64,000 nucleotides of DNA. It comes from a bacterium (GTDB lineage Bacteria; Patescibacteriota; Minisyncoccia; Phycocordibacterales; VMGT01). The stretch spans positions 10,457 to 74,456 of the forward strand of contig JAUYPI010000018.1 in assembly GCA_030697645.1 (NCBI GenBank), in the 5' to 3' direction. Under the pieces are notes generated by a model. It worked only from the letters and a program-made list of their open reading frames with translations. It was not told the origin of the DNA and did not search any database. Numbering within the stretch: the first letter of the stretch is position 1; each line of letters starts with the position of its first letter. Below, piece by piece: positions 3,140 to 31,693 of the stretch. The position numbers and the translations under genes are program-made.

Positions 3140-3384
3140 TACACAATGTTTACACAATTTCCAATTTCTAACTTCTGATTTTTGAGTACGGACTTACCTC
3201 AATTCGAAATCAGAAATTAAAAATCCGAAGTTGCGTTAGCAAAATTCGAATTTGCGTCAGCGGTTTGCACAATTTTCAATTTTCAAGGGCCCAATTTTCA
3301 AACACGACCGTCGTCGTTATTGAGTCATTGACACATTAAAAATTGATTGAAAATTGCAAAATTGAAAATTGGAAATTAAGTGAT
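3140..3384. repeat. Composite palindromic heptad-repeat region: a degenerate arm at 3140-3262 plus a canonical A-type palindrome at 3271-3377
   Basis: AATTTTCAATTTTCAA...CAAACACGACCGTCGTCG...ATTGAGTCATTGACACATT...GAAAATTGCAAAATTGAAAATT. It sits between two minus-strand sugar-nucleotide genes. Confidence 0.8.
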
Positions 3385-4158
3385 TTAGGCATTGACGACA
3401 TCACTGCGTCCGGAGAAAAGCGAAGCGCGCACATTTGAGACTGTCCGGAGCTGCTCTGGCGTGTTGACGCCGAGGACTTCTTCGGGGAGCGCGGCGGGCA
3501 GGGCGAGAATAGAGCGGCCGCGCCCGGTGAGCACGCGCACGGCGTCAGTGAGATAATACTCGCCGTTTGCGCTGTTCGGCCGGAGGTTTTTGAGCGCAGA
3601 AAAGAGCGCTCGCGCACGATAGCAGTAGGCGCCCGCGTTGATCTCGCGGATCTCTCGCTCCTCCTCAGTCGCGCTTTTCTCTTCTTCAATCCGCACAACG
3701 CGGCCCGAGGCGTTCCGGACGATGCGGCCGTAGCCGGTTGGATTATCGAGGAGGGCGGTAAGAAGTGCTCCTGTCGCGCGTGCCTTTCGGTGCGCGACAA
3801 AAAGGCGCGCGAGGGTCTCGGAGCGGATAAGCGGCGTATCGCCGTAGCGGATGAGGACGTCACCGTCAAATCCTTTGAGGAGGCTCTCGGTAATGGAGAC
3901 CGCATGCCCAGTGCCGCGCTGTTCCTCCTGTCTTATAAACTCAATAGGAAGCTCCGAGTACGCACGCACGGCCCCGGCGACTGCCTCGGCCCGATAGCCG
4001 ACGACGAGAATGACGCGCTGGGGTGCGAGCGGCACAATGGCTTCGAGCACATGCGCGATCAATGGCTTGCCATCGAGTTCGTGGCAGACTTTCGGGATGT
4101 CGCCACCCATACGGGTACCTTTACCCGCCGCAAGGATTATTACTGCAAGGGAGCGCAT
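3385..4158 (-). CDS. sugar-phosphate nucleotidyltransferase (GlmU N-terminal uridyltransferase-domain-like), with no acetyltransferase LbH domain
   Basis: LAAGKGTRM nucleotide-binding motif near the N-terminus. The length fits a single NTP-transferase domain. The start is taken at the Met preceding the motif. Confidence 0.7.
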   Translation of the reverse strand: MRSLAVIILAAGKGTRMGGDIPKVCHELDGKPLIAHVLEAIVPLAPQRVILVVGYRAEAVAGAVRAYSELPIEFIRQEEQRGTGHAVSITESLLKGFDGDVLIRYGDTPLIRSETLARLFVAHRKARATGALLTALLDNPTGYGRIVRNASGRVVRIEEEKSATEEEREIREINAGAYCYRARALFSALKNLRPNSANGEYYLTDAVRVLTGRGRSILALPAALPEEVLGVNTPEQLRTVSNVRASLFSGRSDVVNA

Positions 4159-4250
4159 AGAAAATATGCACTTTCTGTAACTTCGCACGCCTGTGCGACG
4201 CTACATGCCTGGGCGCTACTCTCGCGAGCCCGCGTGAGATACAATGCTTA

Positions 4251-4430
4251 GGCCCCGTCCATAAATACCTTCCCCATCTCGCACTCACTGCACGCCCTTA
4301 TCGAGCATCGTGCTCAATCGCGAAATCCTCATCGTATCTCGATACGTCTCGGATTCGCTCATTCCGCGCCAAGCTGCATCAGGCCATGCACTGAGCACGA
4401 TATTAGGGGAACTTATTTATGGACGGGGCC
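4251..4430. mobile_element. MITE-like structured element, copy 1, with 17-bp terminal inverted repeats (GGCCCCGTCCATAAATA ... TATTTATGGACGGGGCC)
   Basis: Perfect terminal inverted repeats read directly from the sequence. The internal 145 bp is about 90% identical, in reverse orientation, to the copy at 60669-60845, and contains further internal inverted repeats. Confidence 0.75.
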
Positions 4431-4436
4431 TTACTG

Positions 4437-5300
4437 ATGTTCGTCGGCTTTAAGAAAAATATTCGCTCCTACGCACTCGTGGCGCTTTTTGCCGTGACCG
4501 TCTTTGTCTGGTACGCCGCGCTCCGCGAGGAGCGCGGCGGCGTGCTCTCCGTGGCATTCCTCGACGTAGGGCAGGGCGACGCGGCCCTGATTGAGAGCCC
4601 GACTGGCCGCCAGGTGCTCATTGACGGCGGGCCGGGGAGGAGCGTGCTCCGCGCCTTGGGGCGCACTATGCCTTTCTTCGACCGCTCGATTGACGTCGTA
4701 ATTGCAACGCACCCAGACCAGGACCACATCGGCGGGCTGCCGGAGGTGCTTGCGCGCTATCGCGTTTCGCATATCCTCGAGCCGGGCGTCGCTGCGGACA
4801 CGGCCGTGTACGGTGCGTTTGCAGAGAGCGTCCGAATCGAGGGTGCGGAACACATACTCGCACGGCGCGGGCAGAAAATCGAGCTTGGCGGCGGGGCGTA
4901 CCTCGACATTCTCTTCCCGGACCGCGACGCAGGCGGCCTCGAGACGAATACCGCCTCTGTCGTTCTAAAGCTCACCTATGGCGCGACCTCATTCCTCCTC
5001 ACCGGCGACTCGCCGAAGCAAATCGAGGAATACCTCGCGGCGCTCGACGGCGAAGCGCTCGACGTTGACGTCCTAAAGGCCGGGCACCATGGCTCGAAGA
5101 CGTCGACGTCAGACTACCTCCTCGGCCTTGCCTCGCCTGCCTATGCCGTGATCTCGGCCGGGCATGACAACCGCTACGGCCATCCGCACCGGGAGGTGCT
5201 CGACGCACTGGCACGTTTCGGAGTCAAGCCCCTCGGCACGTATGAGCGAGGCACCATCATTTTTGAGAGCGACGGCAGGGAGGTGCGGCTGAAGAAATAG
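4437..5300 (+). CDS. ComEC/Rec2-family metallo-beta-lactamase domain protein (competence-related), with a single N-terminal TM
   Basis: VAFLDVGQGDAALIE, HPDQDHIGG and KAGHHGSKTSTS motifs match the ComEC C-terminal MBL domain. The ORF-track start at 4419 lies inside the terminal repeat of the upstream element, so the next ATG is used. Confidence 0.8.
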   Translation: MFVGFKKNIRSYALVALFAVTVFVWYAALREERGGVLSVAFLDVGQGDAALIESPTGRQVLIDGGPGRSVLRALGRTMPFFDRSIDVVIATHPDQDHIGGLPEVLARYRVSHILEPGVAADTAVYGAFAESVRIEGAEHILARRGQKIELGGGAYLDILFPDRDAGGLETNTASVVLKLTYGATSFLLTGDSPKQIEEYLAALDGEALDVDVLKAGHHGSKTSTSDYLLGLASPAYAVISAGHDNRYGHPHREVLDALARFGVKPLGTYERGTIIFESDGREVRLKK

Positions 5301-5381
5301 GGGCGAGAGAACGATTGACATATATTAAAGTGCGTGCTACACCTGACATAGGGGTTTTTCGATAGCCACGCCACCTTACAT

Positions 5382-5813
5382 GTGGAGGAATCATCGATGA
5401 CGTTTTATGTTGTCAGACAGTATGGTGGTTCAGAACGTCGCCTCCAGGGAGTTTTGGTCGTTAGAAAATCAGAGTATTTTGTTATGGAGGCTTTGATCTC
5501 TGAGTGTCATGATACGCGCTTAAAACGCGTAAAAGAAGGACCTATCGCTGATCGAGCGCATGCTATCGAATTTGATTTAGGGCCTGAACGCGACTTTATT
5601 CCTCCTGCACTTCAGGAAGTATTACGACGTGCTGTCGACGACGGGTGTATGTTGAAATGGATGGTGGTCGACGAAAATCCTAGATTATTTTTCAGTCGTT
5701 GGGATGGGCGTTACAGTACCGAACGCGCCTTTACCGAATGGGAGGAGGTAGGAAAACAAGATGGAGGGCTAGAGGTCGTTCGAGATTATGCAGAAGAGGT
5801 TTCTCGATCGTAA
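5382..5813 (+). CDS. hypothetical protein, encoded in a lower-GC (~48%) segment
   Basis: Clean ORF followed by a strong terminator. Composition differs from the flanking DNA. No recognisable motif. Confidence 0.5.
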   Translation: MEESSMTFYVVRQYGGSERRLQGVLVVRKSEYFVMEALISECHDTRLKRVKEGPIADRAHAIEFDLGPERDFIPPALQEVLRRAVDDGCMLKWMVVDENPRLFFSRWDGRYSTERAFTEWEEVGKQDGGLEVVRDYAEEVSRS

Positions 5814-5834
5814 ACCGTAGAAAGCCTGCCGTAT

Positions 5835-5877
5835 CCCTGTGCTCGTGTTTGTCTCACGAGCACAGGGCTTATTTTTT
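5835..5877 (+). terminator. rho-independent terminator
   Basis: CCCTGTGCTCGTG-TTTGTC-TCACGAGCACAGGG hairpin followed by a CTTATTTTTT tract. Confidence 0.8.
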
Positions 5878-5948
5878 CATGCTTCAATTTGCTAATCAGC
5901 GAGGATTTTGGTTTGATAAAGCACAATGCATACCTCTCTGGTGTGCGC

Positions 5949-6023
5949 GCGAGCGTAGTTCAGTGGTAGAACGCTGACCTGATAAGTCAGAGGTCGAAGG
6001 TTCGATTCCTTCCGCTCGCACCA
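5949..6023 (+). tRNA. tRNA-Ile (anticodon GAT), CCA encoded
   Basis: Cloverleaf: acceptor GCGAGCG/CGCTCGC, D-arm GTAGTTCAGTGGTAGAAC, anticodon stem-loop CTGAC-CTGATAA-GTCAG, T-arm GAAGGTTCGATTCCTTC, 3' ACCA. Confidence 0.85.
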
Positions 6024-6046
6024 GATAGGAAAAGTCAAAGCATTTC

Positions 6047-6929
6047 GGAAAGGCGGCGGAGCCGCACCGCTCAAAACCGCAAAAGAACCTGGAGAAAAAC
6101 ATCGGCTCGCCTGCCCGCCTCTGGAGGGAACCATATTTTAATTTTGGGGGAAGAAAATTTTTTAATCCTATGAATAAGAAGGTTACTTTTTTTATAGGTT
6201 TATTAGGATATATATTCGCGGGAATAATAGCGCGATTAGTTTTTAGTAAATCTTCTTTTTATCCAGGGTTAGGATTACAGACTGCCGACTACTCAATTGC
6301 CAATTTAGCTTTTCTATCAATTATTCCCGCGATAATTTTTGTATTGTTTTTTTTCATTTTTCATTATCTATTTAAAGATAGAGAAAATATTATTTTAAAG
6401 TCAAGCGGTTTTATTTTAGTATTTTCTTCTATCTCAATTTATATATGGCGTACACTTTTAGTTTTTGGAATAGGTAGTAATGATCTTCCTATCGATCCAA
6501 TAATAGGATTATTGGGATTTGTTGGAACGCTTACGACATTTATTTATCTCTCCTATCATTCTCTCCGTCTTTATAAAAGTAGCAGCCGTTTATGGGTAGC
6601 CGAACTGATTGCATCAATAGTTGTTTTAGTATCAGGGACTATTTTTAGTGCTTCTGAGTTGTCATATGTAGGTCTAGTCTTACTACCTGCGAGCCTCGTA
6701 TTTTTCCTATTTTCTTTTTTCACCCTACTTATTAAATCATGGAGAGAAACACATAAGTCATCATTTTTCTTCTCTATTCTTGGTCTACTCGTCATAATTT
6801 TCTCAACAGGGCTAGTTTTTGTCATTAAAGTACTTTCCGAATGTTGCCACTGATTATTAACAACTTTTAAGATGGGTCGCCGCCAAAGAAAAATTGGAAA
6901 TTGTTATCGGTGCGGCTCCGCCGCCTTTC
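6047..6929. mobile_element. AT-rich inserted segment bounded by perfect 23-bp inverted repeats (GGAAAGGCGGCGGAGCCGCACCG / CGGTGCGGCTCCGCCGCCTTTCC), 24 bp downstream of tRNA-Ile
   Basis: The inverted repeats were read directly at 6047-6069 and 6907-6929. The enclosed DNA is ~30% GC against ~60% flanking. Confidence 0.6.
6170..6853 (+). CDS. hypothetical multi-pass membrane protein (AT-rich, probably foreign)
   Basis: Six or more hydrophobic segments and Ile/Phe/Leu/Lys-rich composition. It lies inside the inverted-repeat-bounded segment. Confidence 0.55.
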   Translation: MNKKVTFFIGLLGYIFAGIIARLVFSKSSFYPGLGLQTADYSIANLAFLSIIPAIIFVLFFFIFHYLFKDRENIILKSSGFILVFSSISIYIWRTLLVFGIGSNDLPIDPIIGLLGFVGTLTTFIYLSYHSLRLYKSSSRLWVAELIASIVVLVSGTIFSASELSYVGLVLLPASLVFFLFSFFTLLIKSWRETHKSSFFFSILGLLVIIFSTGLVFVIKVLSECCH

Positions 6930-7016
6930 CGAATTTTCGCGGGGGGATTTCTTCGCCGCCGCAGGCGGCGAAATGCGTTCGGACTAATTTAAGTAAGAAT
7001 GCTGCATGACGTTGTT

Positions 7017-7598
7017 ATGCTTGCTACGATTTTAAAATCGAAAAAACGCTGTTCGTGGGTTGGAAATGATCTGCCGATGCAGCAATATCACGATGAGGAA
7101 TGGGGCGTGCCTACCTACGATGACCTGAGGGCATTTGAATTTCTTGTACTTGAAAGTGCCCAGGCAGGATTAAGTTGGCGCACAGTTCTCCACAAAAGAG
7201 AAAACTATCGAAAAGCATTTGCAAACTTTGATCCACAAAGAGTTTCTCGTTTTTCGAGTCGTGATGTTGCGCGATTGTTAAAAAACTCTGGCATTATTAG
7301 AAACAATGCAAAAATTAATGCAGCCATTAATAATGCACATCGGTTTGTTGAAGTACAGGAAGAGTTCGACTCCTTTACGGCATATTCATGGGGGTTTGTT
7401 CATAACGAACCAATAAGACACTCTATTCGAGGAATAGCTGATTATCCAACGATAAGCGCTGAATCAGTTGCGTTTGCTGCCGATCTGAAAAATCGCGGAT
7501 TCAAATTTCTCGGCCCGACGATCATGTATGCTCACATGCAAGCCGTCGGCATGGTGAATGATCACATGATAGGATGTTTTCGTCGCACACGCGTATAA
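7017..7598 (+). CDS. tag: DNA-3-methyladenine glycosylase I
   Basis: CSWVGNDLPMQQYHDEEWGVP, LVLESAQAGLSW and C-terminal AHM..CF motifs characteristic of Tag. Confidence 0.85.
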   Translation: MLATILKSKKRCSWVGNDLPMQQYHDEEWGVPTYDDLRAFEFLVLESAQAGLSWRTVLHKRENYRKAFANFDPQRVSRFSSRDVARLLKNSGIIRNNAKINAAINNAHRFVEVQEEFDSFTAYSWGFVHNEPIRHSIRGIADYPTISAESVAFAADLKNRGFKFLGPTIMYAHMQAVGMVNDHMIGCFRRTRV

Positions 7599-7795
7599 TT
7601 CGACTACCATCTTCTTTCGGCGACGGTAGCCGAGTACGATGTCGTTTTATGAAAGGCGAGTATGTACAAGAGAAAGCGCGACCGCGGTCGGCACGGAGGC
7701 CGCCGCGGCTCGAGTGGAAAGTCGCGCGACGCGGCTCACGGCCGGTGCGGAAAGCACGTGCAATAGAGACGAAGTAGCGGCGGCAGTCGTGCACA

Positions 7796-8149
7796 CTACA
7801 TGCCGAGCGCGCGACGAATGCGCGTGTCGACTTCGGCCATATCGGCACTGCTTAGTCTGCCTGGCGCATAGCGTACCAAGCGCGGATCGAGCGTTGCCAG
7901 TTTCGCGCGGACCCACGACGGTGCAAGGAGGTTTGCCTGTCGCCAGTCTTTGAGCGCGTAATCGAACCGCGTGGCATGCCGCATTGAGGTAATCATGGCA
8001 ACCGTGAGATCGTCAGTTGCGTGTGTGAACGCAGACACGCTCACCACCACAGCGGGCCGTGTTTTGGCGGTCGAGAGGTCGCTAAAGGGGAAGGGGATGA
8101 GGACGACATCACCTCTGCGGTACATCGTAGATTTTTTGCCAGTTGTCAT
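7796..8149 (-). CDS. PemK/MazF-family endoribonuclease toxin (type II toxin-antitoxin)
   Basis: RGDVVLIPFPFSDLSTAKTRPAVVVS is the MazF/PemK signature. It overlaps the upstream antitoxin ORF. Confidence 0.8.
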   Translation of the reverse strand: MTTGKKSTMYRRGDVVLIPFPFSDLSTAKTRPAVVVSVSAFTHATDDLTVAMITSMRHATRFDYALKDWRQANLLAPSWVRAKLATLDPRLVRYAPGRLSSADMAEVDTRIRRALGM

Positions 8150-8357
8150 AGAGGGCGTCCTGTGGATTGTCCCAGTCGGCAGCGAAACTCGTCGCGGCGA
8201 GCGAACTCCACGCGGTGTCGTTCGCTACCGGGACTGTGTGTAGGCGATCGTCTGACGTGCGATTGCGGCGGAGCAAGCGCACCACTCGATGAACGAGCCG
8301 TACTTGATCAGAGCGGAGATCGCGGACGTCTATTGTATTGTGCGTGGTCGTTTGCAT
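8109..8357 (-). CDS. MazE-like antitoxin
   Basis: Small ORF directly upstream of and overlapping the MazF-like gene. The C-terminal acidic/aromatic tail (DWDNPQDALYDNW) is typical of MazE/PemI toxin-binding regions. Confidence 0.6.
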   Translation of the reverse strand: MQTTTHNTIDVRDLRSDQVRLVHRVVRLLRRNRTSDDRLHTVPVANDTAWSSLAATSFAADWDNPQDALYDNWQKIYDVPQR

Positions 8358-8425
8358 AACATGCGCATATCATAGCAAACGATTGGGAAAGGGCAACACG
8401 CAGGCGCGTACGCCGACTCGGCAGT

Positions 8426-9289
8426 TCAGGGCAGTTCAAGCATCGCGACGAATTTTTCGATTGGCACGCTTGCGCCGGAGGCATTGCGGTGCCCGCCGCC
8501 GCCGAGGAGAGTGGCGAGATCGAGCGCTGACGGGTTCTGCCCATCGGCGCTCCTCACGCTAAAATTGACGACCGCCCCTTTGAAGCGAAAAATGGCGACC
8601 GCGGAGTCGTGTTTTTTCGAGAGCGCATGCCCGAGCTCGGATTCAAAGTAGGGCGAATTGTAGCCCGGTACACGGTGCTCTCCTACACGGAGCCATGTCG
8701 GATCGCGGCCCTCGGCAAAGTGCGAGATCAGGGTGTCGGCGTAGCGGGTCATGTGCTCTCCGGCCGCAATAAACGGCTCGAGATTGCCACCGAGGAGCTC
8801 AAGTACGCGCTTGGGCTGGTTCATGAGCGTCGAGAGGTGCATCAGAAGATGGCGCGTGCGTTGTCCGAAGCTAAAGCGCCAGAGGTCATTATCTTCGACG
8901 AGCGTGATGAGTTCCGTCACGGGCTTCTCGGGAAAAAAGTGGTGCCACGCGAGGGAGGCACCGGAGCGTTCGTTATCAAAGACGAAAGTGAAGTTTTCGT
9001 GTTCGCGCGCGAGCTGCTCGAGGGTCTCTTTAATGCCGATGTGGTGATCAATCGTGACGACGCTTTTTGCATGTGCGAGAAGCTCCTGCACGCCGACCGC
9101 AATGTCAACGGTGTAGACTTCTGTGTCTGCGCTGACACGCCCGAGGAGGTTCTCGAGCTCGGAGTGTGAAATGTCGTGGCCCACCGGATGGAGCTCGATG
9201 TGCGGAAATTTTTTGAGCAGCACCGCGGCGGCCGCAGTGCCGTCCGTGCAGTCTTTGTGATAGAGGCCGATAGTGTGAGGGTGGTGCAT
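8426..9289 (-). CDS. DHH-family phosphoesterase (NrnA-like oligoribonuclease / pAp phosphatase)
   Basis: DHH motif (VTIDHHIG) and DHHA1 motif (GGGGHRNASGA). The start is taken at MHHPH, immediately after the upstream repeat. Confidence 0.8.
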   Translation of the reverse strand: MHHPHTIGLYHKDCTDGTAAAAVLLKKFPHIELHPVGHDISHSELENLLGRVSADTEVYTVDIAVGVQELLAHAKSVVTIDHHIGIKETLEQLAREHENFTFVFDNERSGASLAWHHFFPEKPVTELITLVEDNDLWRFSFGQRTRHLLMHLSTLMNQPKRVLELLGGNLEPFIAAGEHMTRYADTLISHFAEGRDPTWLRVGEHRVPGYNSPYFESELGHALSKKHDSAVAIFRFKGAVVNFSVRSADGQNPSALDLATLLGGGGHRNASGASVPIEKFVAMLELP

Positions 9290-9292
9290 ATA

Positions 9293-9445
9293 AGCAAAAT
9301 TCGAAATCCGAAACAAATCGAATTTCCAAGCAACCAATTTCCAAATTTTCAAATCTCAAACACGAACAACGTTCGGGTTTAGAAATTGGAGCTTTGAGAT
9401 TTGGAAATTGTCTTCCAAATTGATTCCTTGGAGCTTGGAAATTCG
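9293..9445. repeat. Palindromic heptad-repeat element, B-type
   Basis: AATTTCCAAGCAACCAATTTCCAAATTTTCAAATCTCAAACACGAACAACGTTCGGGTTTAGAAATTGGAGCTTTGAGATTTGGAAATT... It lies immediately 5' of the DHH gene start on the minus strand. Confidence 0.8.
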
Positions 9446-9576
9446 GGCATTGCCTGTATTTTGTGCTTCGATATTCGGATTTAGTGGGCTGAGGCATCGG
9501 ACGCCCCACAATTTTGTTGTTCAGCGCAAAAAGTGCCAACTAAAACGAATTTTGCTAGAGTATAGCATAGTCTTTC

Positions 9577-9660
9577 GGGCACGTGGCGGAATTGGTATAC
9601 GCGCTACGTTCAGGGCGTAGTCCCCGCAAGGGGTTGGGAGTTCGACTCTCCCCGTGCCCA
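9577..9660 (+). tRNA. tRNA-Leu (anticodon CAG), long variable arm, no encoded CCA
   Basis: Acceptor GGGCACG/CGTGCCC, anticodon stem-loop CTACG-TTCAGGG-CGTAG, variable arm TCCCCGCAAGGGGT, T-arm GGGAGTTCGACTCTCCC. Confidence 0.85.
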
Positions 9661-9692
9661 CAAACGCGAATTTTTCCATTTGTTTACGTTGT

Positions 9693-10277
9693 ATGGATAC
9701 TTTGAAACAAAACTGCATAATTATCCACGGCTGCCCATCAGATGCGGAGAAGGCGATGAATCCCACAACCAGAACATACGACAAGCACTGGATTCCTTGG
9801 GCCAAAAAGGAACTAACGACACTGGGCATAAAAACAGAAACGCCGCTCATGCCGAGTCCTTGGGAGCCGGACTATGAAAAATTTAAATCGGAGTTTGAAA
9901 AATATACAGTGGGAGAAAATACCACCGTGGTCGGCCATAGTTGCGGAGCGGCCTTTTTGGTTCGGTGGCTCGGAGAAACGAAGAGAAAAATCTGCAAACT
10001 TGTGCTTGTTGCTCCGTGGAAAATCTCTGACAAAGATGACGCGTTCCGGAAAGCATTTTACGCATGCCCCATCGACGAGACGATAAAATCGAGAGTCAGC
10101 AAGGTTGTGATGTTTACTGCCGACGACGAGGAAAGTGATGGAAAAGAAAGTTTACGAATTTTTCACCGCGCATTAGGCGGTGAAATTATCGAATTGCAAG
10201 GGCACGGCCACTACACAATGAATGACATGGGAACAGAGGAGTTCCCCGAATTACTTGAAGCAATGGTTGGGAAGTAA
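9693..10277 (+). CDS. serine hydrolase of the alpha/beta fold (YdeN/RBBP9-like esterase family)
   Basis: IIIHGCPSD near the N-terminus and the VGHSCGA nucleophile elbow (GxSxG). Lower-GC gene immediately after tRNA-Leu. Confidence 0.65.
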   Translation: MDTLKQNCIIIHGCPSDAEKAMNPTTRTYDKHWIPWAKKELTTLGIKTETPLMPSPWEPDYEKFKSEFEKYTVGENTTVVGHSCGAAFLVRWLGETKRKICKLVLVAPWKISDKDDAFRKAFYACPIDETIKSRVSKVVMFTADDEESDGKESLRIFHRALGGEIIELQGHGHYTMNDMGTEEFPELLEAMVGK

Positions 10278-10290
10278 TCAAGGCACCGTT

Positions 10291-10740
10291 ATGAACGAAA
10301 TCCCCCATATCGAACACGTCTGGTCGCAGCTGTGTCAATTGTCCTCGGTGGACCAGGACACGAATAGCGTGTCGCTTTTTCATCTGATTGAAGAGCTGGC
10401 GATTGAGCGCGCGAAAAGTGCGCCGCCTCCGCCTGAGGGGGGCGTCGTGATCCCCGTCGCCTGCGAGCTTGTGACGCTCTGGCATAAGCGCTCCGAGGGG
10501 CAGCACGTGATTGCCGACGTCGAGGTGGCGCTCTTTGATCCTCAAGGGGCGCGGCTTCAGAGTGTGATCTACAAACTCGACATCGCGCCGCAGCATAGTC
10601 GTACGCGTTTTCGTCTCAAGATGAATGGGCTCAAGATTACCACTGCGGGCACATATTCGTTTGCGGTGAATATCCGCGGCCCGAATGAGACGCAGTTTGT
10701 TGAGGCCGCCCGCGTGCCGCTCGGGGTGCGGATCAGCTGA
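10291..10740 (+). CDS. hypothetical protein
   Basis: ORF with a start adjusted to the first Met after the upstream stop. No recognisable motif. Confidence 0.45.
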   Translation: MNEIPHIEHVWSQLCQLSSVDQDTNSVSLFHLIEELAIERAKSAPPPPEGGVVIPVACELVTLWHKRSEGQHVIADVEVALFDPQGARLQSVIYKLDIAPQHSRTRFRLKMNGLKITTAGTYSFAVNIRGPNETQFVEAARVPLGVRIS

Positions 10741-10772
10741 AAGGCCACTATAGTTCGCTTCTCCACTGAACC

Positions 10773-12359
10773 ATGGGTGACTACAGCGCTTATTTTCGCG
10801 GCAAGCAGATTACGCTAATAGGCCTGGGGCTTCTTGGGCGCGGTGTTAATGTGGCGAAGTTTCTTGCGGAGTGTGGGGCGGATATGCTCGTGACCGATTT
10901 GAAAACGAAGGATCAGCTTCAGCCGTCGCTTAAAAAACTCGCGCGGTTTAAGAATATTCGCTTCGTGCTCGGCGAGCACCGACTCGAGAACTTCCGGGGT
11001 GTCGACATGGTGATCAAGGCCGCGGGCGTGCCGCTTGATTCGCCGTTTATCGCCGAGGCTCGCTCACATGGCGTGCCGGTCAAAATGGACGCGTCACTCT
11101 TTGCCGAGCTCGCGCCGCCCGGCGTGCTTCTTGTCGGCATTACCGGAACGCGCGGGAAGTCAACGACGACGCAGTTGCTCTACGAGGTGCTAAACGACTG
11201 GCGTAAGGTATTAGGTGTTAGGTATCAGGTTGGCGGACGTTCCGGCCACGAACTCCCCAGTTACCAGTTACCAGTTACCAGTCCCTCGCGGTCACATCGC
11301 GTCTTCCTCGGCGGTAACATCCGTGGCATGGCAACCCTGCCACTCCTCAAAAAAGTCCGCCCTGGCGACATCGTCGTTCTCGAGCTCGACTCGTGGCAGC
11401 TTCAGGGCTTCGGCGAGGCGAAGATCAGTCCGCACGTTGCGGTTTTTACGACATTTTTCGATGACCACCTTAATTACTATGATAGGGACCGCGGACGTTA
11501 TTTGAAGGATAAGGCAAACATTTTTACATACCAAAGTGGCGTAAAAAATTTTCAATTTTCAATTTTCAATTTTCAAACTCGGCCAGTATTGATTGTGGGC
11601 GCACAGGCGGCACCTTTGATACGCAAACATTTTGCGGAGCACGCACAGCGGATGAAGGTGGTGCGGCCGAGCAATGTACCGAAAAATTGGAAGCTCGCGA
11701 TTCCTGGCGAGCATAATCGCGCGAATGCTGCCTCGGCGCTCGTGGCGGCGGATGCACTTGGTGTGCCGCGTTCGGTCAGCAAGCGCGCTATTACTTCTTT
11801 TCATGGTCTCCCCGGTCGCCTCGAGCTCGTGCGAGAGCTCCGCGGCGTCAAAATTTATAACGACACGTGTGCGACGACTCCGGAGGCAACGATCGCCGCG
11901 CTCCGCGCGCTCGGCAGACTAAGCAGCAAGCAGCAAGCAGCAAGCAGCAAGGTCCATCGGATAATTCTTATTATGGGTGGAGCGGACAAAGGGCTCGACA
12001 TGTCGGGGCTGCTCAAGGAGATTCCAAGGTATTGCAGAGCAGTTATTTGGCTTCCGGGTACTGGCACAAATAGAATTATGAAGCATGAATCAAGAAGCAT
12101 GGAAACGGAAGCAATAATTCATTATTCCAAATTCTTGATTCAAGAGATGTACACAACCACACTGAGCGCGGCAATAAAGCAGGCGGTCCTTGTCGCAAGG
12201 AAGGGGGATAGTATTCTCTTCAGCCCCGCCTTCGCCTCATTCGGCATGTTCAAGAATGAGTACGACCGGGGAGAAAAATTTAATCGCGCGGTAGCGGCCC
12301 GTAAAGACACGACCCGCGCGAAGGCGCGGGTCAGTAGAATGCAACATAACGAATCTTAA
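10773..12359 (+). CDS. murD: UDP-N-acetylmuramoyl-L-alanine--D-glutamate ligase, enlarged by three in-frame heptanucleotide-repeat insertions
   Basis: Mur ligase ATP motif GITGTRGKSTTT, central and C-terminal Mur ligase domains (GGADKG, SPAFASFGMF). At 528 aa it is longer than a typical ~450 aa MurD. The coding sequence contains (TTACCAG)3 at 11261-11283, (AATTTTC)4 at 11547-11576 and (CAAGCAG)4-5 at 11921-11951. Confidence 0.85.
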   Translation: MGDYSAYFRGKQITLIGLGLLGRGVNVAKFLAECGADMLVTDLKTKDQLQPSLKKLARFKNIRFVLGEHRLENFRGVDMVIKAAGVPLDSPFIAEARSHGVPVKMDASLFAELAPPGVLLVGITGTRGKSTTTQLLYEVLNDWRKVLGVRYQVGGRSGHELPSYQLPVTSPSRSHRVFLGGNIRGMATLPLLKKVRPGDIVVLELDSWQLQGFGEAKISPHVAVFTTFFDDHLNYYDRDRGRYLKDKANIFTYQSGVKNFQFSIFNFQTRPVLIVGAQAAPLIRKHFAEHAQRMKVVRPSNVPKNWKLAIPGEHNRANAASALVAADALGVPRSVSKRAITSFHGLPGRLELVRELRGVKIYNDTCATTPEATIAALRALGRLSSKQQAASSKVHRIILIMGGADKGLDMSGLLKEIPRYCRAVIWLPGTGTNRIMKHESRSMETEAIIHYSKFLIQEMYTTTLSAAIKQAVLVARKGDSILFSPAFASFGMFKNEYDRGEKFNRAVAARKDTTRAKARVSRMQHNES

Positions 12360-13513
12360 ACACGTAACTTGGTGAGCAAACTGCGTGCTTGCTGCTCCGC
12401 CCATTCAATCGCGCTGAAAAGCGACACCACATCGTTCGCTTCGTACGGCGTATGTAGTCGCATCACGCCTTGGATACCGAGCGGAATCTGGTGAAATCCA
12501 ATGGAGCGGTCGAGAAATGCCCGCACAAAAACATCATTCGCCGCGCACATCACCGCTGGCATGGTGCCGCCGATTTTCGCCGCCTCGTAGGCCAGACTGA
12601 CGCACGGGAAACGATCGGTATCGCATGGCTCAAAGGTGAGTTCTCCTGGTGCGTCAAACAATGAAAATTTTGTTGCGTTGTGTACGGGGCGCCGCTGTGG
12701 GTACAGAAGCGCGTACTGAATGGGAATACGCATGTCCGGCACGCTCAGCTGGGCAAGGGTTGTTCCGTCTTTGAATGCCACCATGGAGTGGATGATTGAC
12801 TCAGGGTGAACCACTATATCTATCCGCTCCGGAGGAATCTCAAAGAGATGCATCACCTCAATCACCTCAAAACCCTTGTTCATCAGCGTTGCTGAGTCAA
12901 CGGTGATCTTCGGACCCATTTTCCAGGTGGGGTGCTTGAGGGCCTGTAGAGGTGTCACGCGCTCGAGTTTTCTTTTGGGGGTTTTGCGGAACGGCCCCCC
13001 TGAAGCCGTGAGGATAAGTCGTGCGACTGATTCTCGCGGCACTCCCTCGAGGCACTGAAAGATGGCGCTCGGTTCCGAGTCCACCGGAAGGATCCACGCC
13101 CCGTATTTTTTTGCGGTTTCCATCGTGAGGACTCCAGCCGCGACCATGGTTTCTTTGTTCGCGAGCGCCATGTCCTTTCCTTTTCCGAGCGCGGCAAGAG
13201 TGGGCTTGATTCCAGCAACCCCGACAATGCCGTTGACCACGAGATCGGCCTCTCCGAGAGTCGCGAGTTGTGCAAGCCCCGCTTCCCCCACAAACACCGG
13301 GATTGATACCTCCGGTATTAAAATTTTTGCCTGCGATGGATCGCTGACCGCGACGACTTGGGGCCGAAATTCCTTGATCTGTTTATACAACAGGGCGATT
13401 TTTTGGTGCGTGGAAAGAGCAACTATTTCGAGCAGATCAGGGTTATTTCGCACCACATCAAGTGTTTGCGTTCCGATAGAACCGGTTGATCCTAAAACGG
13501 TAAGTTTTTTCAT
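12356..13513 (-). CDS. dxr: 1-deoxy-D-xylulose 5-phosphate reductoisomerase
   Basis: N-terminal GSTGSIGTQTLDV NADPH motif and conserved Dxr core (ANKE, LPVDSEPSAI, HPTW) along the full length. Confidence 0.9.
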   Translation of the reverse strand: MKKLTVLGSTGSIGTQTLDVVRNNPDLLEIVALSTHQKIALLYKQIKEFRPQVVAVSDPSQAKILIPEVSIPVFVGEAGLAQLATLGEADLVVNGIVGVAGIKPTLAALGKGKDMALANKETMVAAGVLTMETAKKYGAWILPVDSEPSAIFQCLEGVPRESVARLILTASGGPFRKTPKRKLERVTPLQALKHPTWKMGPKITVDSATLMNKGFEVIEVMHLFEIPPERIDIVVHPESIIHSMVAFKDGTTLAQLSVPDMRIPIQYALLYPQRRPVHNATKFSLFDAPGELTFEPCDTDRFPCVSLAYEAAKIGGTMPAVMCAANDVFVRAFLDRSIGFHQIPLGIQGVMRLHTPYEANDVVSLFSAIEWAEQQARSLLTKLRV

Positions 13514-13638
13514 CGCTTTTCCCTTGCGTTGGCTCGCGGGTTTTTAATTGTGTCTGTGGTGTATAACCACGCTGCGCCAAAAAAGGAGACACGGGTTAGT
13601 TGAATAGAGCCTGACGACATAGGAGTCGTTGTAAAAAA

Positions 13639-13667
13639 TACGGCCGCCTGTAGAGCAGGCGGCCGTA
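13639..13667 (-). terminator. rho-independent terminator for the upstream minus-strand gene
   Basis: TACGGCCGCCTG-TAGAG-CAGGCGGCCGTA hairpin. On the minus strand it is followed by TTTTTT. Confidence 0.8.
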
Positions 13668-13690
13668 GACCGTTCAAGCGTTCTCCACCC

Positions 13691-14587
13691 TTACCGCCGG
13701 CGGATGACAAGCACTCCATTGCGGCCGTCGTGCTGGCCCAGGCTCACGGCGCGGCGGTGTGACCACCACACGTAATCGTTATCCGCGTCGAGGGCGCTAT
13801 AGGTGTCGGTGCCGTCTGTAGCTATGTTCGATGGCTCGATGTCACGGTGCTGAAATTGTGCCCGGATGATTTCCGGTATTGAGAGGCAGCCCGATGCGGG
13901 GTAACCACCACTCGCTAGGTGGCCGCAGGTAGCGTAGAAGTGTGCAAGTATGGCCTTGTTGGCCACAGCGTAGCGCGGATGGCGTGGGTCGTGAGTGAAG
14001 TGTACCGGGCCGATACCTCCGGCGACGAACACTTTTATCTCAGCCGAAATGCCTCTACGTATGCCATTTATTATCGCGTCAACAACGCTTGCCGATCGCA
14101 CTGTGGGCTCGATGTCGCCGACGATAGCAGCGCGGTTAAAGAGGGAATCTCGTCCGGCGTGCGCCGCGATGACCCAGTGCGTTGCGGTGTTGTACGCGAC
14201 TATAACGTGGCAGTCCGCGACAGAAAACCATGCGCCCGAGTGTGGCGGGAGCACGCACCCCTCTGCCAATGGGCCACGGAGCAGTGCGAATTTGCTGTTG
14301 GCGAGCGAAATGCGCTCGGTGAAATCCTCGCTCTCGCAGATAGCTGCGTTAAATCGTGAATGGTCAGGCGCATACACCGTATCGATGCCTGCCTGAAGTG
14401 CGACGTGGCGTAGCTGCGAGAATTGCTCGAGTGCTTCCGCGTGTTCGAGTTCCTCTTGCCGGCGCACCGCATCAATACGCCAATCAACGTCAGCACCATT
14501 ACGGCCGAAAAGGCGTACCTCAACCTTGCCGTCGAACGGCGTGAAGATTGCGCTGGGGTTCATAGGGTTCGATCGATTTCCGAGCAT
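13691..14587 (-). CDS. YfiH/PgeF-family (DUF152, Cu-oxidase_4-like) purine nucleoside phosphorylase / peptidoglycan editing factor (tentative)
   Basis: Conserved Cys and His spacing (SVADCHVIV ... HAGRDSL ... H) resembles the YfiH family. The assignment is uncertain. Confidence 0.5.
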   Translation of the reverse strand: MLGNRSNPMNPSAIFTPFDGKVEVRLFGRNGADVDWRIDAVRRQEELEHAEALEQFSQLRHVALQAGIDTVYAPDHSRFNAAICESEDFTERISLANSKFALLRGPLAEGCVLPPHSGAWFSVADCHVIVAYNTATHWVIAAHAGRDSLFNRAAIVGDIEPTVRSASVVDAIINGIRRGISAEIKVFVAGGIGPVHFTHDPRHPRYAVANKAILAHFYATCGHLASGGYPASGCLSIPEIIRAQFQHRDIEPSNIATDGTDTYSALDADNDYVWWSHRRAVSLGQHDGRNGVLVIRRR

Positions 14588-14629
14588 ATTTTTTCTCCTC
14601 GTCTCTAGGCGTGTGTGACATGTACTTTG

Positions 14630-15247
14630 TTACCATTTCCAAAAGAAGCGCGGTACGCTTTCGTAATACCGTGCGTACTCGGGCCCTTTCATCTCACGAA
14701 GGAGCGTCTCCTCGCGCGCGATGTTTGACCGGACGTAGCAGTAGGTGAGTACGCCGAGCAGAAGTGCGGCGACGTTTTGTAGCAGCAACACGAGCGCGAA
14801 TGCCTCGGCGAGTGAACCGCAATACATCGGGTTGCGACTCCATCGGTAAAGTCCGCGCACCGTCACTTTTCCTTCGCGAACAATCGGCCCCTTGACTGCA
14901 TTGCTCCAGTTCGCGCCAAGCTCCCACTTCGCACGAAGCTGAAGCACGATTGCCGCGATAAGAAGCGCAAGTCCCGCGAGGCAGAGCGCGTCATCTTCTG
15001 CAAAAATGCCCACAGGAATGGCCCTCAATGGACGAAGCACGCTCACAAACAACCACGGTGCAAGAGAACGAACAATGAGTGCGCCCCACAACAAGAGGAG
15101 TGCTCGTTCTTGAACCCAAAGCCATGGTACTTGTCGGTGCTTTTCGACACGCCCCTGTACTATTTTTTTGGAGAGCCACCACCTGCCAGTCCTGAGGACG
15201 ACAAAGAGCGAAACGATGATAACGAACAACGTTGTGTTTTCGATCAC
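14630..15247 (-). CDS. isoprenylcysteine carboxyl methyltransferase (ICMT)-family / phospholipid methyltransferase-like membrane protein
   Basis: Multi-TM protein with a C-terminal GLYRWSRNPMY motif and downstream E...R typical of the ICMT family. Confidence 0.7.
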   Translation of the reverse strand: MIENTTLFVIIVSLFVVLRTGRWWLSKKIVQGRVEKHRQVPWLWVQERALLLLWGALIVRSLAPWLFVSVLRPLRAIPVGIFAEDDALCLAGLALLIAAIVLQLRAKWELGANWSNAVKGPIVREGKVTVRGLYRWSRNPMYCGSLAEAFALVLLLQNVAALLLGVLTYCYVRSNIAREETLLREMKGPEYARYYESVPRFFWKW

Positions 15248-15484
15248 GGTTTTCTCCTCCGTGTGAGTGACTGCGAAGATTCAACTGTCCGCGCTTCAAA
15301 CTACTACAGTTGCCGCCGGAGCACAACGACACGCTACATTGCAGACGGACGGTGTCGGGCGCGAACGGGCTTGCTTTCGGCAAGGTCCTGTGGTAGCTTG
15401 CGCCGAGGATTGCATCGCGGCATAGTGCCGCAGCGCAACGTACGTTTCAGCGCAACAGTATTGTTGCAGGGAAAGGAAGTTGAG

Positions 15485-20130: not shown

Positions 20131-20243
20131 CCCCCCTACGTTTGGCGTAGGGGGTTTCGTCGTGGCTGCCCGCCAGGCTTGTGCACAGACCGCAAAGATT
20201 ATCGCGCGGGTTGTTTGGTATACTGTGTGTAAATATAGGATTG

Positions 20244-20372
20244 AATTTTCAATTTCTAATTTTCAATCAATTTTCAATTATTCAATTTTCAAACACGAAC
20301 GGCGCGCCACCGTCATTGGATCATTGTAACATTGAAAATTTATTGGAAATTGAAAATTGTAAATTGAAAATT
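20244..20372. repeat. Palindromic heptad-repeat element, A-type, ending 4 nt before the pilB ATG
   Basis: AATTTTCAATTTCTAATTTTCAATCAATTTTCAATTATTCAATTTTCAAACACGAACGGCGCGCCACCGTCATTGGATCATTGTAACATTGAAAATTTATTGGAAATTGAAAATTGTAAATTGAAAATT. Confidence 0.85.
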
Positions 20373-20376
20373 TTGT

Positions 20377-22145: not shown

Positions 22146-22265
22146 AAATTTTCAATTTTCAATTTTGCAATTTTCAATCAATTTTGCAATGACTCAATTT
22201 TCAAACACGAACGACGTCGTCGTCATTGAGACGTTGAAAATTTATTGAAAATTGAAAATTGAGAA
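22146..22265. repeat. Palindromic heptad-repeat element, A-type, between pilB and pilC
   Basis: AAATTTTCAATTTTCAATTTTGCAATTTTCAATCAATTTTGCAATGACTCAATTTTCAAACACGAACGACGTCGTCGTCATTGAGACGTTGAAAATTTATTGAAAATTGAAAATTGAGAATTGGAAATTG. Confidence 0.85.
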
Positions 22266-22283
22266 TTGGAAATTGCGATAGCT

Positions 22284-23513: not shown

Positions 23514-23539
23514 GTTTGTATAGCGCAAAGTGCTGCTAG

Positions 23540-23657
23540 AATTTTCAATTTACAATTTTCAATTTTCATTAAATTTTCAATTCCTCAATTTTCAAACACG
23601 AACGACGCCGCCGGCATTGAATCATTGACACATTGAAAATTGCAAAATTGAAAATTT
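23540..23657. repeat. Palindromic heptad-repeat element, A-type
   Basis: GAATTTTCAATTTACAATTTTCAATTTTCATTAAATTTTCAATTCCTCAATTTTCAAACACGAACGACGCCGCCGGCATTGAATCATTGACACATTGAAAATTGCAAAATTGAAAATTT. Confidence 0.85.
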
Positions 23658-23714
23658 AAGATACGGCGAGCACTTTGGTTTTGGCATGTGATATTAGTGC
23701 GACTACCAGTATTT

Positions 23715-24161: not shown

Positions 24162-24190
24162 CGAAATGGCCAAGGCAGCTGGTCGGGCCG

Positions 24191-24308
24191 AATTTTCAAT
24201 TTACAATTTTCAATCAATTTTCAATTACCCAATTCTCAAACACGACGCCGTCCGTAATTGAGTCATTGAAACATTGAAAATTTATTGAAAATTGAGAATT
24301 GGAAATTT
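24191..24308. repeat. Palindromic heptad-repeat element, A-type
   Basis: AATTTTCAATTTACAATTTTCAATCAATTTTCAATTACCCAATTCTCAAACACGACGCCGTCCGTAATTGAGTCATTGAAACATTGAAAATTTATTGAAAATTGAGAATTGGAAATTT. Confidence 0.85.
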
Positions 24309-24318
24309 AATTGCGGTT

Positions 24319-25365
24319 ATGTTGCTTACTACCAAGCCACCACGGGGCTTCAGCCTCGTTGAGGTCGTCGTCGGTTCCGCCATCATTCTCATCGTGCTCG
24401 GCGGGCTTATTGCCGCGTTCACTCGCTACGCAGCGACGCTTTTCCGCACTACCGATCGGGTACAAGCAACGTATCTTGCCGAGGAGGGGATTGAAGTGGC
24501 GCGTATCCTCCGCGACGCGAGCTGGACCAGCTTTGCCGCGCTCACGCTCGATACGCCGTACCGGCTCGCGCTCTCAAGCGGCGTGTGGGAGGCGACGACA
24601 AGCGAGGCGCTCATTGATGGCGCGTTTGATCGCACGATGACGCTTCAGAGCGTGTATCGGCGGACGAGCGATAGTGATATCGTTGCGTCAACCTCGCTCG
24701 CGAGCAAGGCGATCGACCCCGACGCGCGGTACGTTTTAGTGCGCCTCAGCTGGAGCCCGCTGCCGTTCTCCGAGGCCTCTGCGGAGGCATTTGAGGCAGG
24801 CTCCACAGACGGGGATCTTGGGGGCTTTCCGTCAAATAACGGCGGCAATGGCGACATCGCGCAGGGTTTCACCGTGCCTGCCGGGAGCGACATCGTGGTG
24901 CCGCGCGTGGAGCTTTATCTGCGTCGTGTAACCGCCGCACCATCTGATTTGTACCTTGAAATCCGAAGCGGCTCGACGGTAGGGCCCGTCGTTGCGACGT
25001 CCGCGACGCTTGATGGCGCGTCCCTGCCTGCGACACTGTTGTGGACTTCATTTACTTTTCCGACACGGCCGACGCTCACCGGGGGCGTTCTCTACCACCT
25101 GCGCCTTCGGAGTGATCCCGATTCGACCGTCGCATTTTCCGGTTCGATCGGAACGATTCATTGGGGCTATCTACAGGCTGACCCGAGCCCCTACGGAGGC
25201 GGCATCGCGCGACGATACGTTGGACGTCTTGGGAATCCACTGGACGAAGGTCAGGCGCTCGATCAGTACGACTTTTCGTTTCGTGTCTACAAGGAAGTGC
25301 CGGGCGGTTTTGCTGAGGCAATCGAGTACACGACACACCTTGTGAATTTGTTTGAGACACCGTAG
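24319..25365 (+). CDS. prepilin-like minor pilin (large pseudopilin)
   Basis: PRGFSLVEVVVGSAIILIVLGGLIA prepilin leader with Glu+5. 350 aa, Gly/Ser/Thr-rich C-terminal domain. Confidence 0.75.
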   Translation: MLLTTKPPRGFSLVEVVVGSAIILIVLGGLIAAFTRYAATLFRTTDRVQATYLAEEGIEVARILRDASWTSFAALTLDTPYRLALSSGVWEATTSEALIDGAFDRTMTLQSVYRRTSDSDIVASTSLASKAIDPDARYVLVRLSWSPLPFSEASAEAFEAGSTDGDLGGFPSNNGGNGDIAQGFTVPAGSDIVVPRVELYLRRVTAAPSDLYLEIRSGSTVGPVVATSATLDGASLPATLLWTSFTFPTRPTLTGGVLYHLRLRSDPDSTVAFSGSIGTIHWGYLQADPSPYGGGIARRYVGRLGNPLDEGQALDQYDFSFRVYKEVPGGFAEAIEYTTHLVNLFETP

Positions 25366-25367
25366 GC

Positions 25368-25660
25368 GAAATTTTCAATTTTCAATTTTGCAATTTTCAA
25401 TAAATTTTCAATGAATCAATTTTCAAACACGTAACCACTCACCTTCGTACACAACCGCGTAACAAAGCCGTCATTGCGAGGAGCAAGATCCCTTCGCTTC
25501 GCTCGGGACAGGCTCCGCAATTCAGAGTCAGTACGTAAAACCCCTGGATTGCTTCGCTCCTTTTAGTCGCTCGCAAAGACGGGCGTGAGTGATTACTCAA
25601 ACACGAACGGTGCCGTGGTCATTGAGACATTGAACCATTGAAAATTGCAAATTGAAAATT
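25368..25660. repeat. Palindromic heptad-repeat element, A-type, split by a nested 165-bp insertion
   Basis: The left arm ends ...CAATTTTCAAACACG at 25431 and the repeat resumes TCAAACACGAACGGTGCCGTGGTCATTGAGACATTGAACCATTGAAAATTGCAAATTGAAAATT at 25596, directly abutting the ATG at 25661. Confidence 0.85.
25431..25595. mobile_element. MITE-like insertion with 12-bp terminal inverted repeats (GTAACCACTCAC / GTGAGTGATTAC, one mismatch) and an 8-bp target-site duplication (TCAAACAC)
   Basis: Inverted-repeat ends and duplicated TCAAACAC on both flanks read directly from the sequence. The insertion interrupts an otherwise typical palindromic repeat at its core. Confidence 0.7.
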
Positions 25661-26191
25661 ATGCGAGATTTCCAACATCCAAAACTCGGTCAGACATTGA
25701 TTGAACTACTCGTCTATGCTGCGCTCGTGGTCATCATTGGCGGTATCGTGACGACGATGCTTGTCGCGATGCAGCGCGCGATTGCGCAGACGCTTGTTGC
25801 GCGCCGCGTTCAGGCGACGGCCGCAGTGGTACTTGAGCGCATCGTGCGCGACGCGCGAGTGGCCCATGACATTGACGAGCTCGCGAGTACGCTTGGCGTG
25901 CATCCCGGGCGTGTGACCCTGCTCGTTCGTGATGAGGGCGGCGGGCCGGATGTCGCGTACGCCTTCGAGGCGGTAGCGTCAGCGCTCGAAGTGCGGCGCA
26001 ACGGCGTGCTTGAAGGATCCCTGACGCCCGACACCGTTTCGGTTGCGAATCTTGTTTTTCGGGAAGTCGTAACGCCGGTGTCGGAGGCGCTCCGCATCGA
26101 GCTCACGCTGCATGCGGAGCAGGGGCGGGCGTCGAGTACGGAGAAATTTTATGTAACTACCGTTTTGCGGGATTCGTATCAGTTGGAGTAA
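25661..26191 (+). CDS. prepilin-like minor pilin
   Basis: KLGQTLIELLVYAALVVIIGGI N-terminal hydrophobic helix with Glu+5 after a short leader. Confidence 0.7.
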   Translation: MRDFQHPKLGQTLIELLVYAALVVIIGGIVTTMLVAMQRAIAQTLVARRVQATAAVVLERIVRDARVAHDIDELASTLGVHPGRVTLLVRDEGGGPDVAYAFEAVASALEVRRNGVLEGSLTPDTVSVANLVFREVVTPVSEALRIELTLHAEQGRASSTEKFYVTTVLRDSYQLE

Positions 26192-26213
26192 TCGTATGTC
26201 TTCGTGTGTGAAA

Positions 26214-26327
26214 AAATTTTTAATTATCAATTTTGCAATTTTCAATCAATTTTCAATTACCCAATTTTCAAACACGACGCCGTCGTCATTGAGTCATTGA
26301 AACATTGAAAATTGTAAATTGAAAATT
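26214..26327. repeat. Palindromic heptad-repeat element, A-type, abutting the ATG at 26328
   Basis: AATTATCAATTTTGCAATTTTCAATCAATTTTCAATTACCCAATTTTCAAACACGACGCCGTCGTCATTGAGTCATTGAAACATTGAAAATTGTAAATTGAAAATT. Confidence 0.85.
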
Positions 26328-27620: not shown

Positions 27621-27660
27621 GGCGAATTTCCAATTTCCAATAACCAATTTCCAAACAATT
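27621..27660. repeat. Heptad-repeat fragment (B-type units) upstream of tpiA
   Basis: GAATTTCCAATTTCCAATAACCAATTTCCAAACAATTTTGC. The ORF track translates it as a spurious N-terminal extension of TpiA. Confidence 0.6.
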
Positions 27661-28469: not shown

Positions 28470-28493
28470 TCCTCAATCATCAGGCGTTGTCAG

Positions 28494-31347: not shown

Positions 31348-31508
31348 AGAAGTTCTGCGCTAGAAGTCATGGTATGATTACAGTGTAGCATACTGACGCA
31401 AAATATGCTCCAGCTCTTTCCACAATTTCGTATTCATTCGCTTCCAGCGCCGCGGTTTGGAAGTTGGAGGTCATAATTTTAGCGCATAATGCAAAATAAC
31501 ACAGTAAA

Positions 31509-31667: not shown

Positions 31668-31693
31668 CATTTTGCTTTTTGTACTACCATACC

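Follow-up and report, generated by a model that had tools for sequence, protein, structure and literature searches.

Near the start of the window, by which we mean the whole 64-kb stretch of DNA analysed here, a hairpin-forming repeat of about 180 bp separates two divergent genes, one for an NTP_transferase (GlmU/IspD-like) and one for an MBL-fold (Lactamase_B) ComEC/Rec2-like protein. A second copy lies in the opposite orientation just ahead of a tRNA cluster. Each copy is bounded by terminal inverted repeats (TIRs) and flanked by a short target-site duplication (TSD). The features at the two sites are as follows.

3385–4158, minus strand: divergent NTP_transferase (GlmU/IspD-like) gene, the conserved left neighbour of the copy 1 site
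4248–4250: left TSD of copy 1, TTA; relatives have a single triplet here (ACAATGC-CCA/TCA-CTGATG)
4251–4430, minus strand (the better-folding strand, collinear with the plus strand of copy 2): copy 1, putative hairpin MITE of about 180 bp
4251–4267, plus strand: left TIR of copy 1, GGCCCCGTCCATAAATA, from the motif scan
4414–4430, minus strand: right TIR of copy 1, holding an ATG (4419–4421) preceded by a Shine-Dalgarno-like AGGGGA
4419–4436, plus strand: six element-derived codons, MDGALL (TIR + TSD + CTG), in frame; public annotation 293 aa
4431–4433: right TSD of copy 1, TTA
4437–5300, plus strand: MBL-fold (Lactamase_B) ComEC/Rec2-like gene, with its ancestral start 3 nt downstream of the insertion
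60666–60668: left TSD of copy 2, TAA
60669–60845, plus strand: copy 2, putative hairpin MITE of 177 bp; plus-strand fold −114.9 kcal/mol
60669–60685, plus strand: left TIR of copy 2, from the motif scan
60829–60845, minus strand: right TIR of copy 2, from the motif scan
60846–60848: right TSD of copy 2, TAA
60852–60923, plus strand: tRNA-Arg(TCT), first of the tRNA cluster (ARAGORN, Rfam), with the insertion target at −6 to −4 from its 5' end

Anatomy and surroundings of the two copies

The sequence GGCCCCGTCCATAAATA opens each copy and its reverse complement closes each. The motif scan revealed four exact sites in the window (4251+, 4430−, 60669+ and 60845−) against 0.06 expected from dinucleotide shuffles, and none elsewhere in the 64 kb even at up to three mismatches. 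The two copies with perfect 17-bp TIRs that a preliminary description of this DNA had reported are thus borne out by an exact 17-mer at all four ends. The repeats in fact run on beyond 17 bp, with 18 perfect and 21 of 22 matching positions in copy 2 and 23 of 25 in copy 1. Compared as reverse complements, the copies are 90.5% identical, close to the value of about 90% given earlier for their inverted interiors, and the shared block comprises the element together with 3–6 flanking nucleotides (4245–4433 versus 60666–60851). Perfect TIRs despite a divergence of about 10% between the copies fit selection on the termini; at this distance, a recent origin cannot be demonstrated for either. Over its full length the element forms an imperfect palindrome, its arms being about 76% complementary, and each copy folds as one long imperfect hairpin, scoring z = −8 to −14 relative to shuffled sequence, in keeping with the internal inverted repeats described before. 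Coding capacity is absent, as had been suggested: indels between the copies break or shift the reading frames.

The MBL/ComEC-like protein has homologues at 88%, 82% and 80% identity, the nearest named ones being from the Parcubacteria group and Taylorbacteria. Homologues of 286–287 aa align from the Met at 4437, and the ATG at 4419, within the right TIR of copy 1, adds six codons upstream of that start, in agreement with the earlier proposal of a spuriously extended ORF. The distance of 6 nt between copy 2 and tRNA-Arg was likewise correct, the tRNA starting at 60852. Further along the same cluster, 39 nt between tRNA-Val and tRNA-Ala (61343–61381) are 79% identical to the 3' half of tRNA-Val(CAC), and may represent what is left of a tRNA, or a tRNA that ARAGORN did not recognise.

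The window contains other repeats. AT-rich palindromic intergenic elements, built as (AATTTTC)n ... GC-rich centre ... (GAAAATT)n heptamer runs, fill most gaps between the pilus and glycolysis genes and lie at 3253–3377, 20225–20375, 22147–22277, 23528–23684, 24172–24315, 25359–25689, 26204–26356, 28482–28627 and 59488–59616; they are probably the first MITE-like family of the preliminary description. A second flavour, AAATTCCAAGCTCCAA...TTGGAGCTTGGAATTT, forms a sister type at 397–580, 9304–9402, 27621–27659, 31498–31670 and 57367–57513, and both flavours also occur in relatives (L059 2419–2540; L070 about 4948–5113). Moreover, a direct repeat of about 115 nt with 96% identity (32605–32722 and 34183–34302) starts in the last 5 nt of the tmRNA gene (32198–32610) and brackets 1.5 kb in which an Ion_trans_2 channel protein (32931–33707) is the only Pfam-matched ORF; no integrase was found between the repeats. 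This segment may represent a local duplication or else a small ssrA-associated island.

Target duplications, empty sites and further copies

A 3-bp direct duplication flanks all three complete copies of the element, being TTA at copy 1, TAA at copy 2 and TTA at a copy from another species (L062) described below. Given that TTA and TAA are reverse complements and that copies 1 and 2 are mutually inverted, both were inserted into the same type of target. The duplications at the two window copies had not been mentioned in the preliminary description.

Relatives that keep the divergent NTP_transferase/MBL gene pair allow the copy 1 site to be compared base by base. Two of them, L070 and L071, whose MBL protein is 88% identical, read ...GTGTACAATGC-CCA-CTGATGC..., and a third, L074 (82%), reads ...ACAATGC-TCA-CCGATG..., where the window reads ...GATACAATGC-TTA-(180 nt)-TTA-CTGATGT...; the empty-site sequence for copy 1 is ACAATGCTTACTGATG. 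The window differs from all three at this site by exactly the element plus one triplet (TTA), which is the signature of a transposition that would have proceeded through a 3-bp staggered cut. For copy 2, relatives were traced via an upstream 113-aa ORF, and the order of pilus operon, tRNA-Arg and tRNA-Val is kept. The spacer from the pilus-operon ORF to tRNA-Arg measures 242 nt in the window and 43–87 nt in L076, L077 and L079; none of these three has an element at the copy 2 position, their diverged spacers leaving this empty site short of base resolution.

In a relative with 80% identity (L073), the gap between the glmU-like and MBL genes holds an unrelated perfect palindrome, GATTTACAATAATTCACGATCGTGAATTATTGTAAATC, at 1195–1240. 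The gap may tolerate or attract hairpin insertions.

Copies of the element were also found outside the window. An exact-protein look-up identified the MAG GCA_034376905.1 (99.9% identical) and two SRA assemblies as the window's strain. Short SRA contigs start within the element, and MAG contig 173 (L067 1–331) carries the glmU-like gene, copy 1 and 59 nt of the MBL gene. Contig 103 of the same MAG (L059) matches window 4351–15300 with one mismatch; its element equals copy 1 from 4351 onward, has 11 differences within 4253–4350, and is preceded by a left flank unrelated to the window, consisting of TTA and then the frr gene. Recombinant or chimera alike, this contig exposes the left half of a third copy, by which at least three copies are shown in the gene pool of the window's strain.

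The two contigs of GCA_034376905.1 place different genes to the left of the MBL gene, frr in the case of contig 103 and the glmU-like gene in that of contig 173, and the switch point lies inside the element, after window position 4350 (L059 3152–3435 versus window 4188–4430). Either copies have recombined in the population, or the assembly is chimeric at the repeat; exchange or mis-joining between copies would in either case produce the discordant glmU-like/MBL and frr/MBL junctions of this sister assembly.

A six-frame concatenated translation of the element, used as a protein query, gave one match only, a spurious ORF (P0001) that overlies a decayed fourth copy. This copy is present in GCA_964539325.1 and on four metagenome contigs (L062–L066), which represent another species. 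Its left terminus is decayed and a 28-bp deletion has occurred; it is flanked by TTA/TTA and lies between a PIN gene, whose stop codon served as the target, and a uvrA-like gene. In that genome the copy 1 site is empty (L070). Thus the family predates the split of the two species, with independent insertions in each. Four members are known, at least two of them outside the window. Viral contigs yielded no match in an exact scan for a 33-nt interior core and none in a scan for the TIR, and blastn of the element against plasmid and phage collections gave no match.

An intergenic hairpin without mobility, copied in inverted form by a simple segmental duplication, might be considered, as only two copies occur within the 64-kb window and they are 10% apart; the preliminary description had offered simple duplication as the reading if just these two existed. 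Further copies do exist, however, in unrelated contexts. The similarity moreover stops at the TIRs, each copy has its own 3-bp direct duplication, and relatives have no element at either site, and we therefore give this explanation next to no credence. The same observations, namely TSDs at three complete copies, both sites empty in syntenic relatives and copies beyond the window, uphold the original assignment of the repeat as MITE-like.

A shorter family with the same terminus

The first 21 bp of the 180-nt element, GGCCCCGTCCATAAATAAGTT, are identical to those of a second, non-coding and intergenic element of about 95 nt. An exact 17-mer scan of one genome per species gave four Candidatus Lloydbacteria loci, two Kaiserbacteria loci and one locus from a 'Saccharibacteria' MAG, and a 21-mer scan of metagenomes, groundwater metagenomes among them, gave 24 loci. 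At all the CPR loci the motif opens this short element, which has the layout GGCCCCGTCCATAAATAAGTTCTACAAAATATGGACGTGGCAC-AAGGG-GCCGTAACCACAAATAACGAGGACGTTATTTGTGGACGGGCCC and is made up of a pair of tandem hairpins, the arms of which are variant forms of the terminal repeat; its right terminus is the variant GGGCCCGTCCACAAATAA and its interior is unrelated to that of the 180-nt element. Examples are L015 2865–2955, L005 5732–5820 and L030 7169–7258, in addition to about 20 loci (L035–L058). The window has no copy of this family, and no Rfam family matches it at the gathering score. The two kinds of element thus share a 21-bp terminus and a 3-bp TWA duplication, but the shorter one is built of two tandem hairpins, sometimes more, whereas the longer one is a single long foldback. 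This common terminus in other Parcubacteria lineages lends further weight to the MITE reading.

Other matches were set aside. Those of the 17-mer in Bacteroidota and other non-CPR genomes are single, lie in coding-like sequence and number about what is expected by chance for 596 Gb, and a solo TIR match within GC-rich coding-like sequence (L040) is a fragment or a chance hit.

Some of the short elements are modular. Variants with at least one extra hairpin (GGGCACTTCCATTT...AAATTGGTCGCAC) occur at L030 4111–4265, L037 about 1310–1488 and L047 about 1830–1993; in L045 (1–146) the extra hairpin module is tandemly repeated, and in L051 (4851–5069) the second loop carries an insertion of about 130 nt. 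The stem of each module resembles the terminal repeat.

Both ends are available at 19 distinct loci. At 13 of these, one with an ambiguous end, the triplets on the two sides agree fully, and at four more they match at two of the three positions; a full match is expected by chance at 1/64 per locus. The matching triplets are TTA (seven), TAA (four), ATA (two) and CTA (one), minus the one ambiguous case. TTA/TTA and TAA/TAA occur with the same interior orientation, and a 2-bp TA duplication therefore cannot explain the flanks. A TA duplication of the IS630/mariner type was also considered and rejected, for one end of the element would then have to carry an additional base that varies and agrees with the flank on the other side. 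Three loci of one metagenome (L035, L039 and L058) contain near-identical elements with different flanks, which points to recent activity of the short family.

Hairpins in tandem modules of variable number, recalling a BIME-like mosaic, are also what might be seen if these were REP/REPIN-type palindromes spread by a RAYT (an IS200/IS605-like Y1 transposase) through single-stranded DNA hairpins. The stems of the short family do keep their complementarity, compensatory changes maintaining the pairing in 5 of 23 pairs. REP/REPIN and IS200/IS605 elements, however, are not known to make target duplications, whereas here the flanking triplets co-vary (TTA/TTA, TAA/TAA, ATA/ATA) in 3 of 3 complete copies of the long family and at the 13 of 19 loci of the short one, and the empty site differs by exactly the element plus 3 bp. 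No Y1 transposase domain was found among the scanned window ORFs either, and we regard a REP/REPIN origin as very unlikely.

A structured small RNA or a cis-regulatory hairpin, its repeats being kept for RNA function and its mobility being incidental or due to recombination, had been put forward earlier as the alternative to a transposon. The folding of the 180-nt element is indeed very strong, and it is biased: in all four copies the same strand (plus for copy 2, minus for copy 1) folds 20–28 kcal/mol better than the other, with 6–8 G·U pairs as against 1–2. This strand faces the downstream gene in four of four contexts (tRNA-Arg, glmU-like, frr and uvrA-like), and copy 2, given its distance of 6 nt, would be co-transcribed with the tRNA. 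The asymmetry in folding energy is real but not decisive. Two of the four contexts are uninformative as to orientation; it says nothing for copy 1, which lies between divergent genes, and amounts to a coin-flip at the other sites. Arm-versus-arm transition mismatches, the measure of the G·U bias, stand at 6:2 (binomial p = 0.29) among copies that share ancestry and are not independent, and a covariation check over four sequences revealed one compensatory pair among 66. The two strands of the short family fold equally well (mean difference 1.6 ± 3.7 kcal/mol), leaving the sibling without strand asymmetry. No Rfam family reached threshold for the long element, the best being a 21-bit match to a miRNA hairpin against a gathering score of 72. 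Neither in nor beside either copy was a promoter-like or terminator-like site found, and the only terminator-like matches (4469–4497) fall inside the MBL coding sequence. TSDs, empty sites and a terminus attached to an unrelated interior are, by contrast, features of transposons. The RNA alternative thus did not gain support and we consider it improbable, while incidental RNA-level effects of the element are quite plausible.

Taken together, a length of 177–180 bp, within the limit of about 300 bp for a MITE, the lack of an ORF, the TIRs, TSDs, empty sites, extra copies and shared terminus indicate that the 180-bp repeats are, with good probability, a MITE, that is, a mobile non-autonomous transposon.

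Probable class of the element and likely consequences for its host

Given a MITE, its TIRs would be the binding and cleavage sites of a transposase that acts in trans and is encoded elsewhere in the genome, or has since been lost. Pfam scans of 40 window ORFs, among them all otherwise unassigned ones of at least 139 aa, gave no transposase or recombinase, the DDE_Tnp_1, DDE_Tnp_4 and DUF4096 types included; the Pfam content of the window is housekeeping, pilus, glycolysis and toxin-antitoxin functions together with LAGLIDADG and HNH endonucleases. The gene tables of related contigs list no transposase. In about 590 kb of related loci, all-versus-all blastn found no IS-sized repeat, and a regular-expression search of the six-frame translations found no IS5 DUF4096 N-terminal motif. 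Exact-TIR scans of genome, metagenome and viral collections returned short elements only and no autonomous one. Among inverted TIR pairs 0.7–3.5 kb apart with up to four mismatches, a single weak pair (L053/L055) was seen, probably by chance. The label 'MITE' is therefore one of anatomy and mobility, not of a known parent IS.

Just two proteins of the mobile-element type were seen in the window, a LAGLIDADG-like ORF (47530–48270, minus strand), which abuts and overlaps tRNA-Leu(GAG) (47479–47565), and a stand-alone HNH endonuclease ORF (55004–55468, minus strand).

Judged by the length of the duplication and its TTA/TAA target alone, the enzyme acting on a MITE of this kind has somewhat less than an even chance of being an IS5-family (IS427/IS1031-type) or PIF/Harbinger-like DDE transposase making 3-bp staggered cuts at TWA. 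MITEs derived from IS5-family insertion sequences, of which IS1237 is an example, are of the same small non-coding type, with TIRs that start with GG and a 3-bp duplication, IS1237 itself duplicating TTA (TAA) (PMC2516522). Here, in contrast, the host is a groundwater bacterium of the Parcubacteria, and neither a parent IS nor a transposase of the IS5 type came to light in the sequence scanned. The related PIF/Harbinger elements of eukaryotes duplicate 3 bp as well (PMC12730594; PMC2213677). Among them, the Tourist/mPing MITEs resemble the present element in duplicating TTA/TAA, lying near genes and forming hairpins, but their hosts are eukaryotes and any kinship would run only via the putative IS5/Harbinger transposase. 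The TIR of mPing starts with GGCC, as does the TIR here, a likeness to be taken as a lead only.

Another point of comparison is provided by the Correia (NEMIS) elements of Neisseria and by ERIC/RUP, which are 100–180 bp long, have TIRs, lie near gene starts and are co-transcribed, and whose long RNA hairpins can alter the expression of neighbouring genes. Correia elements duplicate TA and have unrelated 26-bp TIRs, and their promoter, IHF-site and RNase III effects have been demonstrated experimentally. The present element is like Correia and ERIC in its probable consequences for its neighbours, the MBL gene and the tRNA operon. It lies outside named families of the Correia/ERIC type, as the TIRs and the duplication differ: membership in Correia/NEMIS was rejected since a TA-only TSD conflicts with the flanks of the 95-nt family and the TIR is unrelated. 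In its working the element resembles IS5/Harbinger-type MITEs, and in its likely side effects Correia- or ERIC-type hairpin repeats.

In relatives the ATG of the MBL gene follows a TACAAT box by 8 nt, which suggests that the leader of this gene is very short or perhaps absent. Copy 1 was inserted at −6 to −4 from that ATG; its right TIR supplies AGGGGA-N10-ATG (4419), and the TTA duplication puts this ATG in frame with the MBL gene. The element would thereby part the ComEC/Rec2-like gene from its −10-like TACAAT box, and would set a 180-nt hairpin and a new Shine-Dalgarno–ATG ahead of it. Given the position of the insertion, transcription from the old promoter would start right at the edge of the element, so that the entire hairpin would be included in the RNA. 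At the second site, the preceding stop codon is directly followed by a block that all relatives conserve; the insertion is downstream of it, and the element is therefore probably transcribed as the leader of tRNA-Arg. As such, copy 2 would form a hairpin leader of the tRNA-Arg operon, most likely transcribed, and RNase P would remove it.

A wider proposal joins the two families. The 180-nt and 95-nt elements might form one Parcubacteria-wide superfamily with an invariant 21-bp terminus and an as yet unrecognised transposase, whose gene might reside on a phage or plasmid or in the host organism, in which selected hairpins act as RNA or single-stranded DNA on adjacent genes and tRNA operons. The compensatory changes, together with folding that is biased to one strand, suggest such selection; taken as a whole, this proposal is doubtful.

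Patescibacteria (candidate-phyla) genomes are tiny, and the usual description has them poor in mobile DNA. In a full-text search of the literature, no account of MITEs from the Candidate Phyla Radiation turned up, and the TIR string occurred in no paper. This study adds a MITE family with a base-exact empty site at copy 1 and a terminus conserved across several Parcubacteria lineages. The element breaks and mis-joins assemblies, for contigs terminate within its sequence and in one MAG it links frr to the MBL gene, and it corrupts annotation by placing the six spurious codons on a ComEC-like protein. The shared terminus offers a means of finding the transposase and of following gene flow between these uncultured organisms. 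For the host, the position of the two copies should affect the expression of a competence-related gene and of a tRNA operon.
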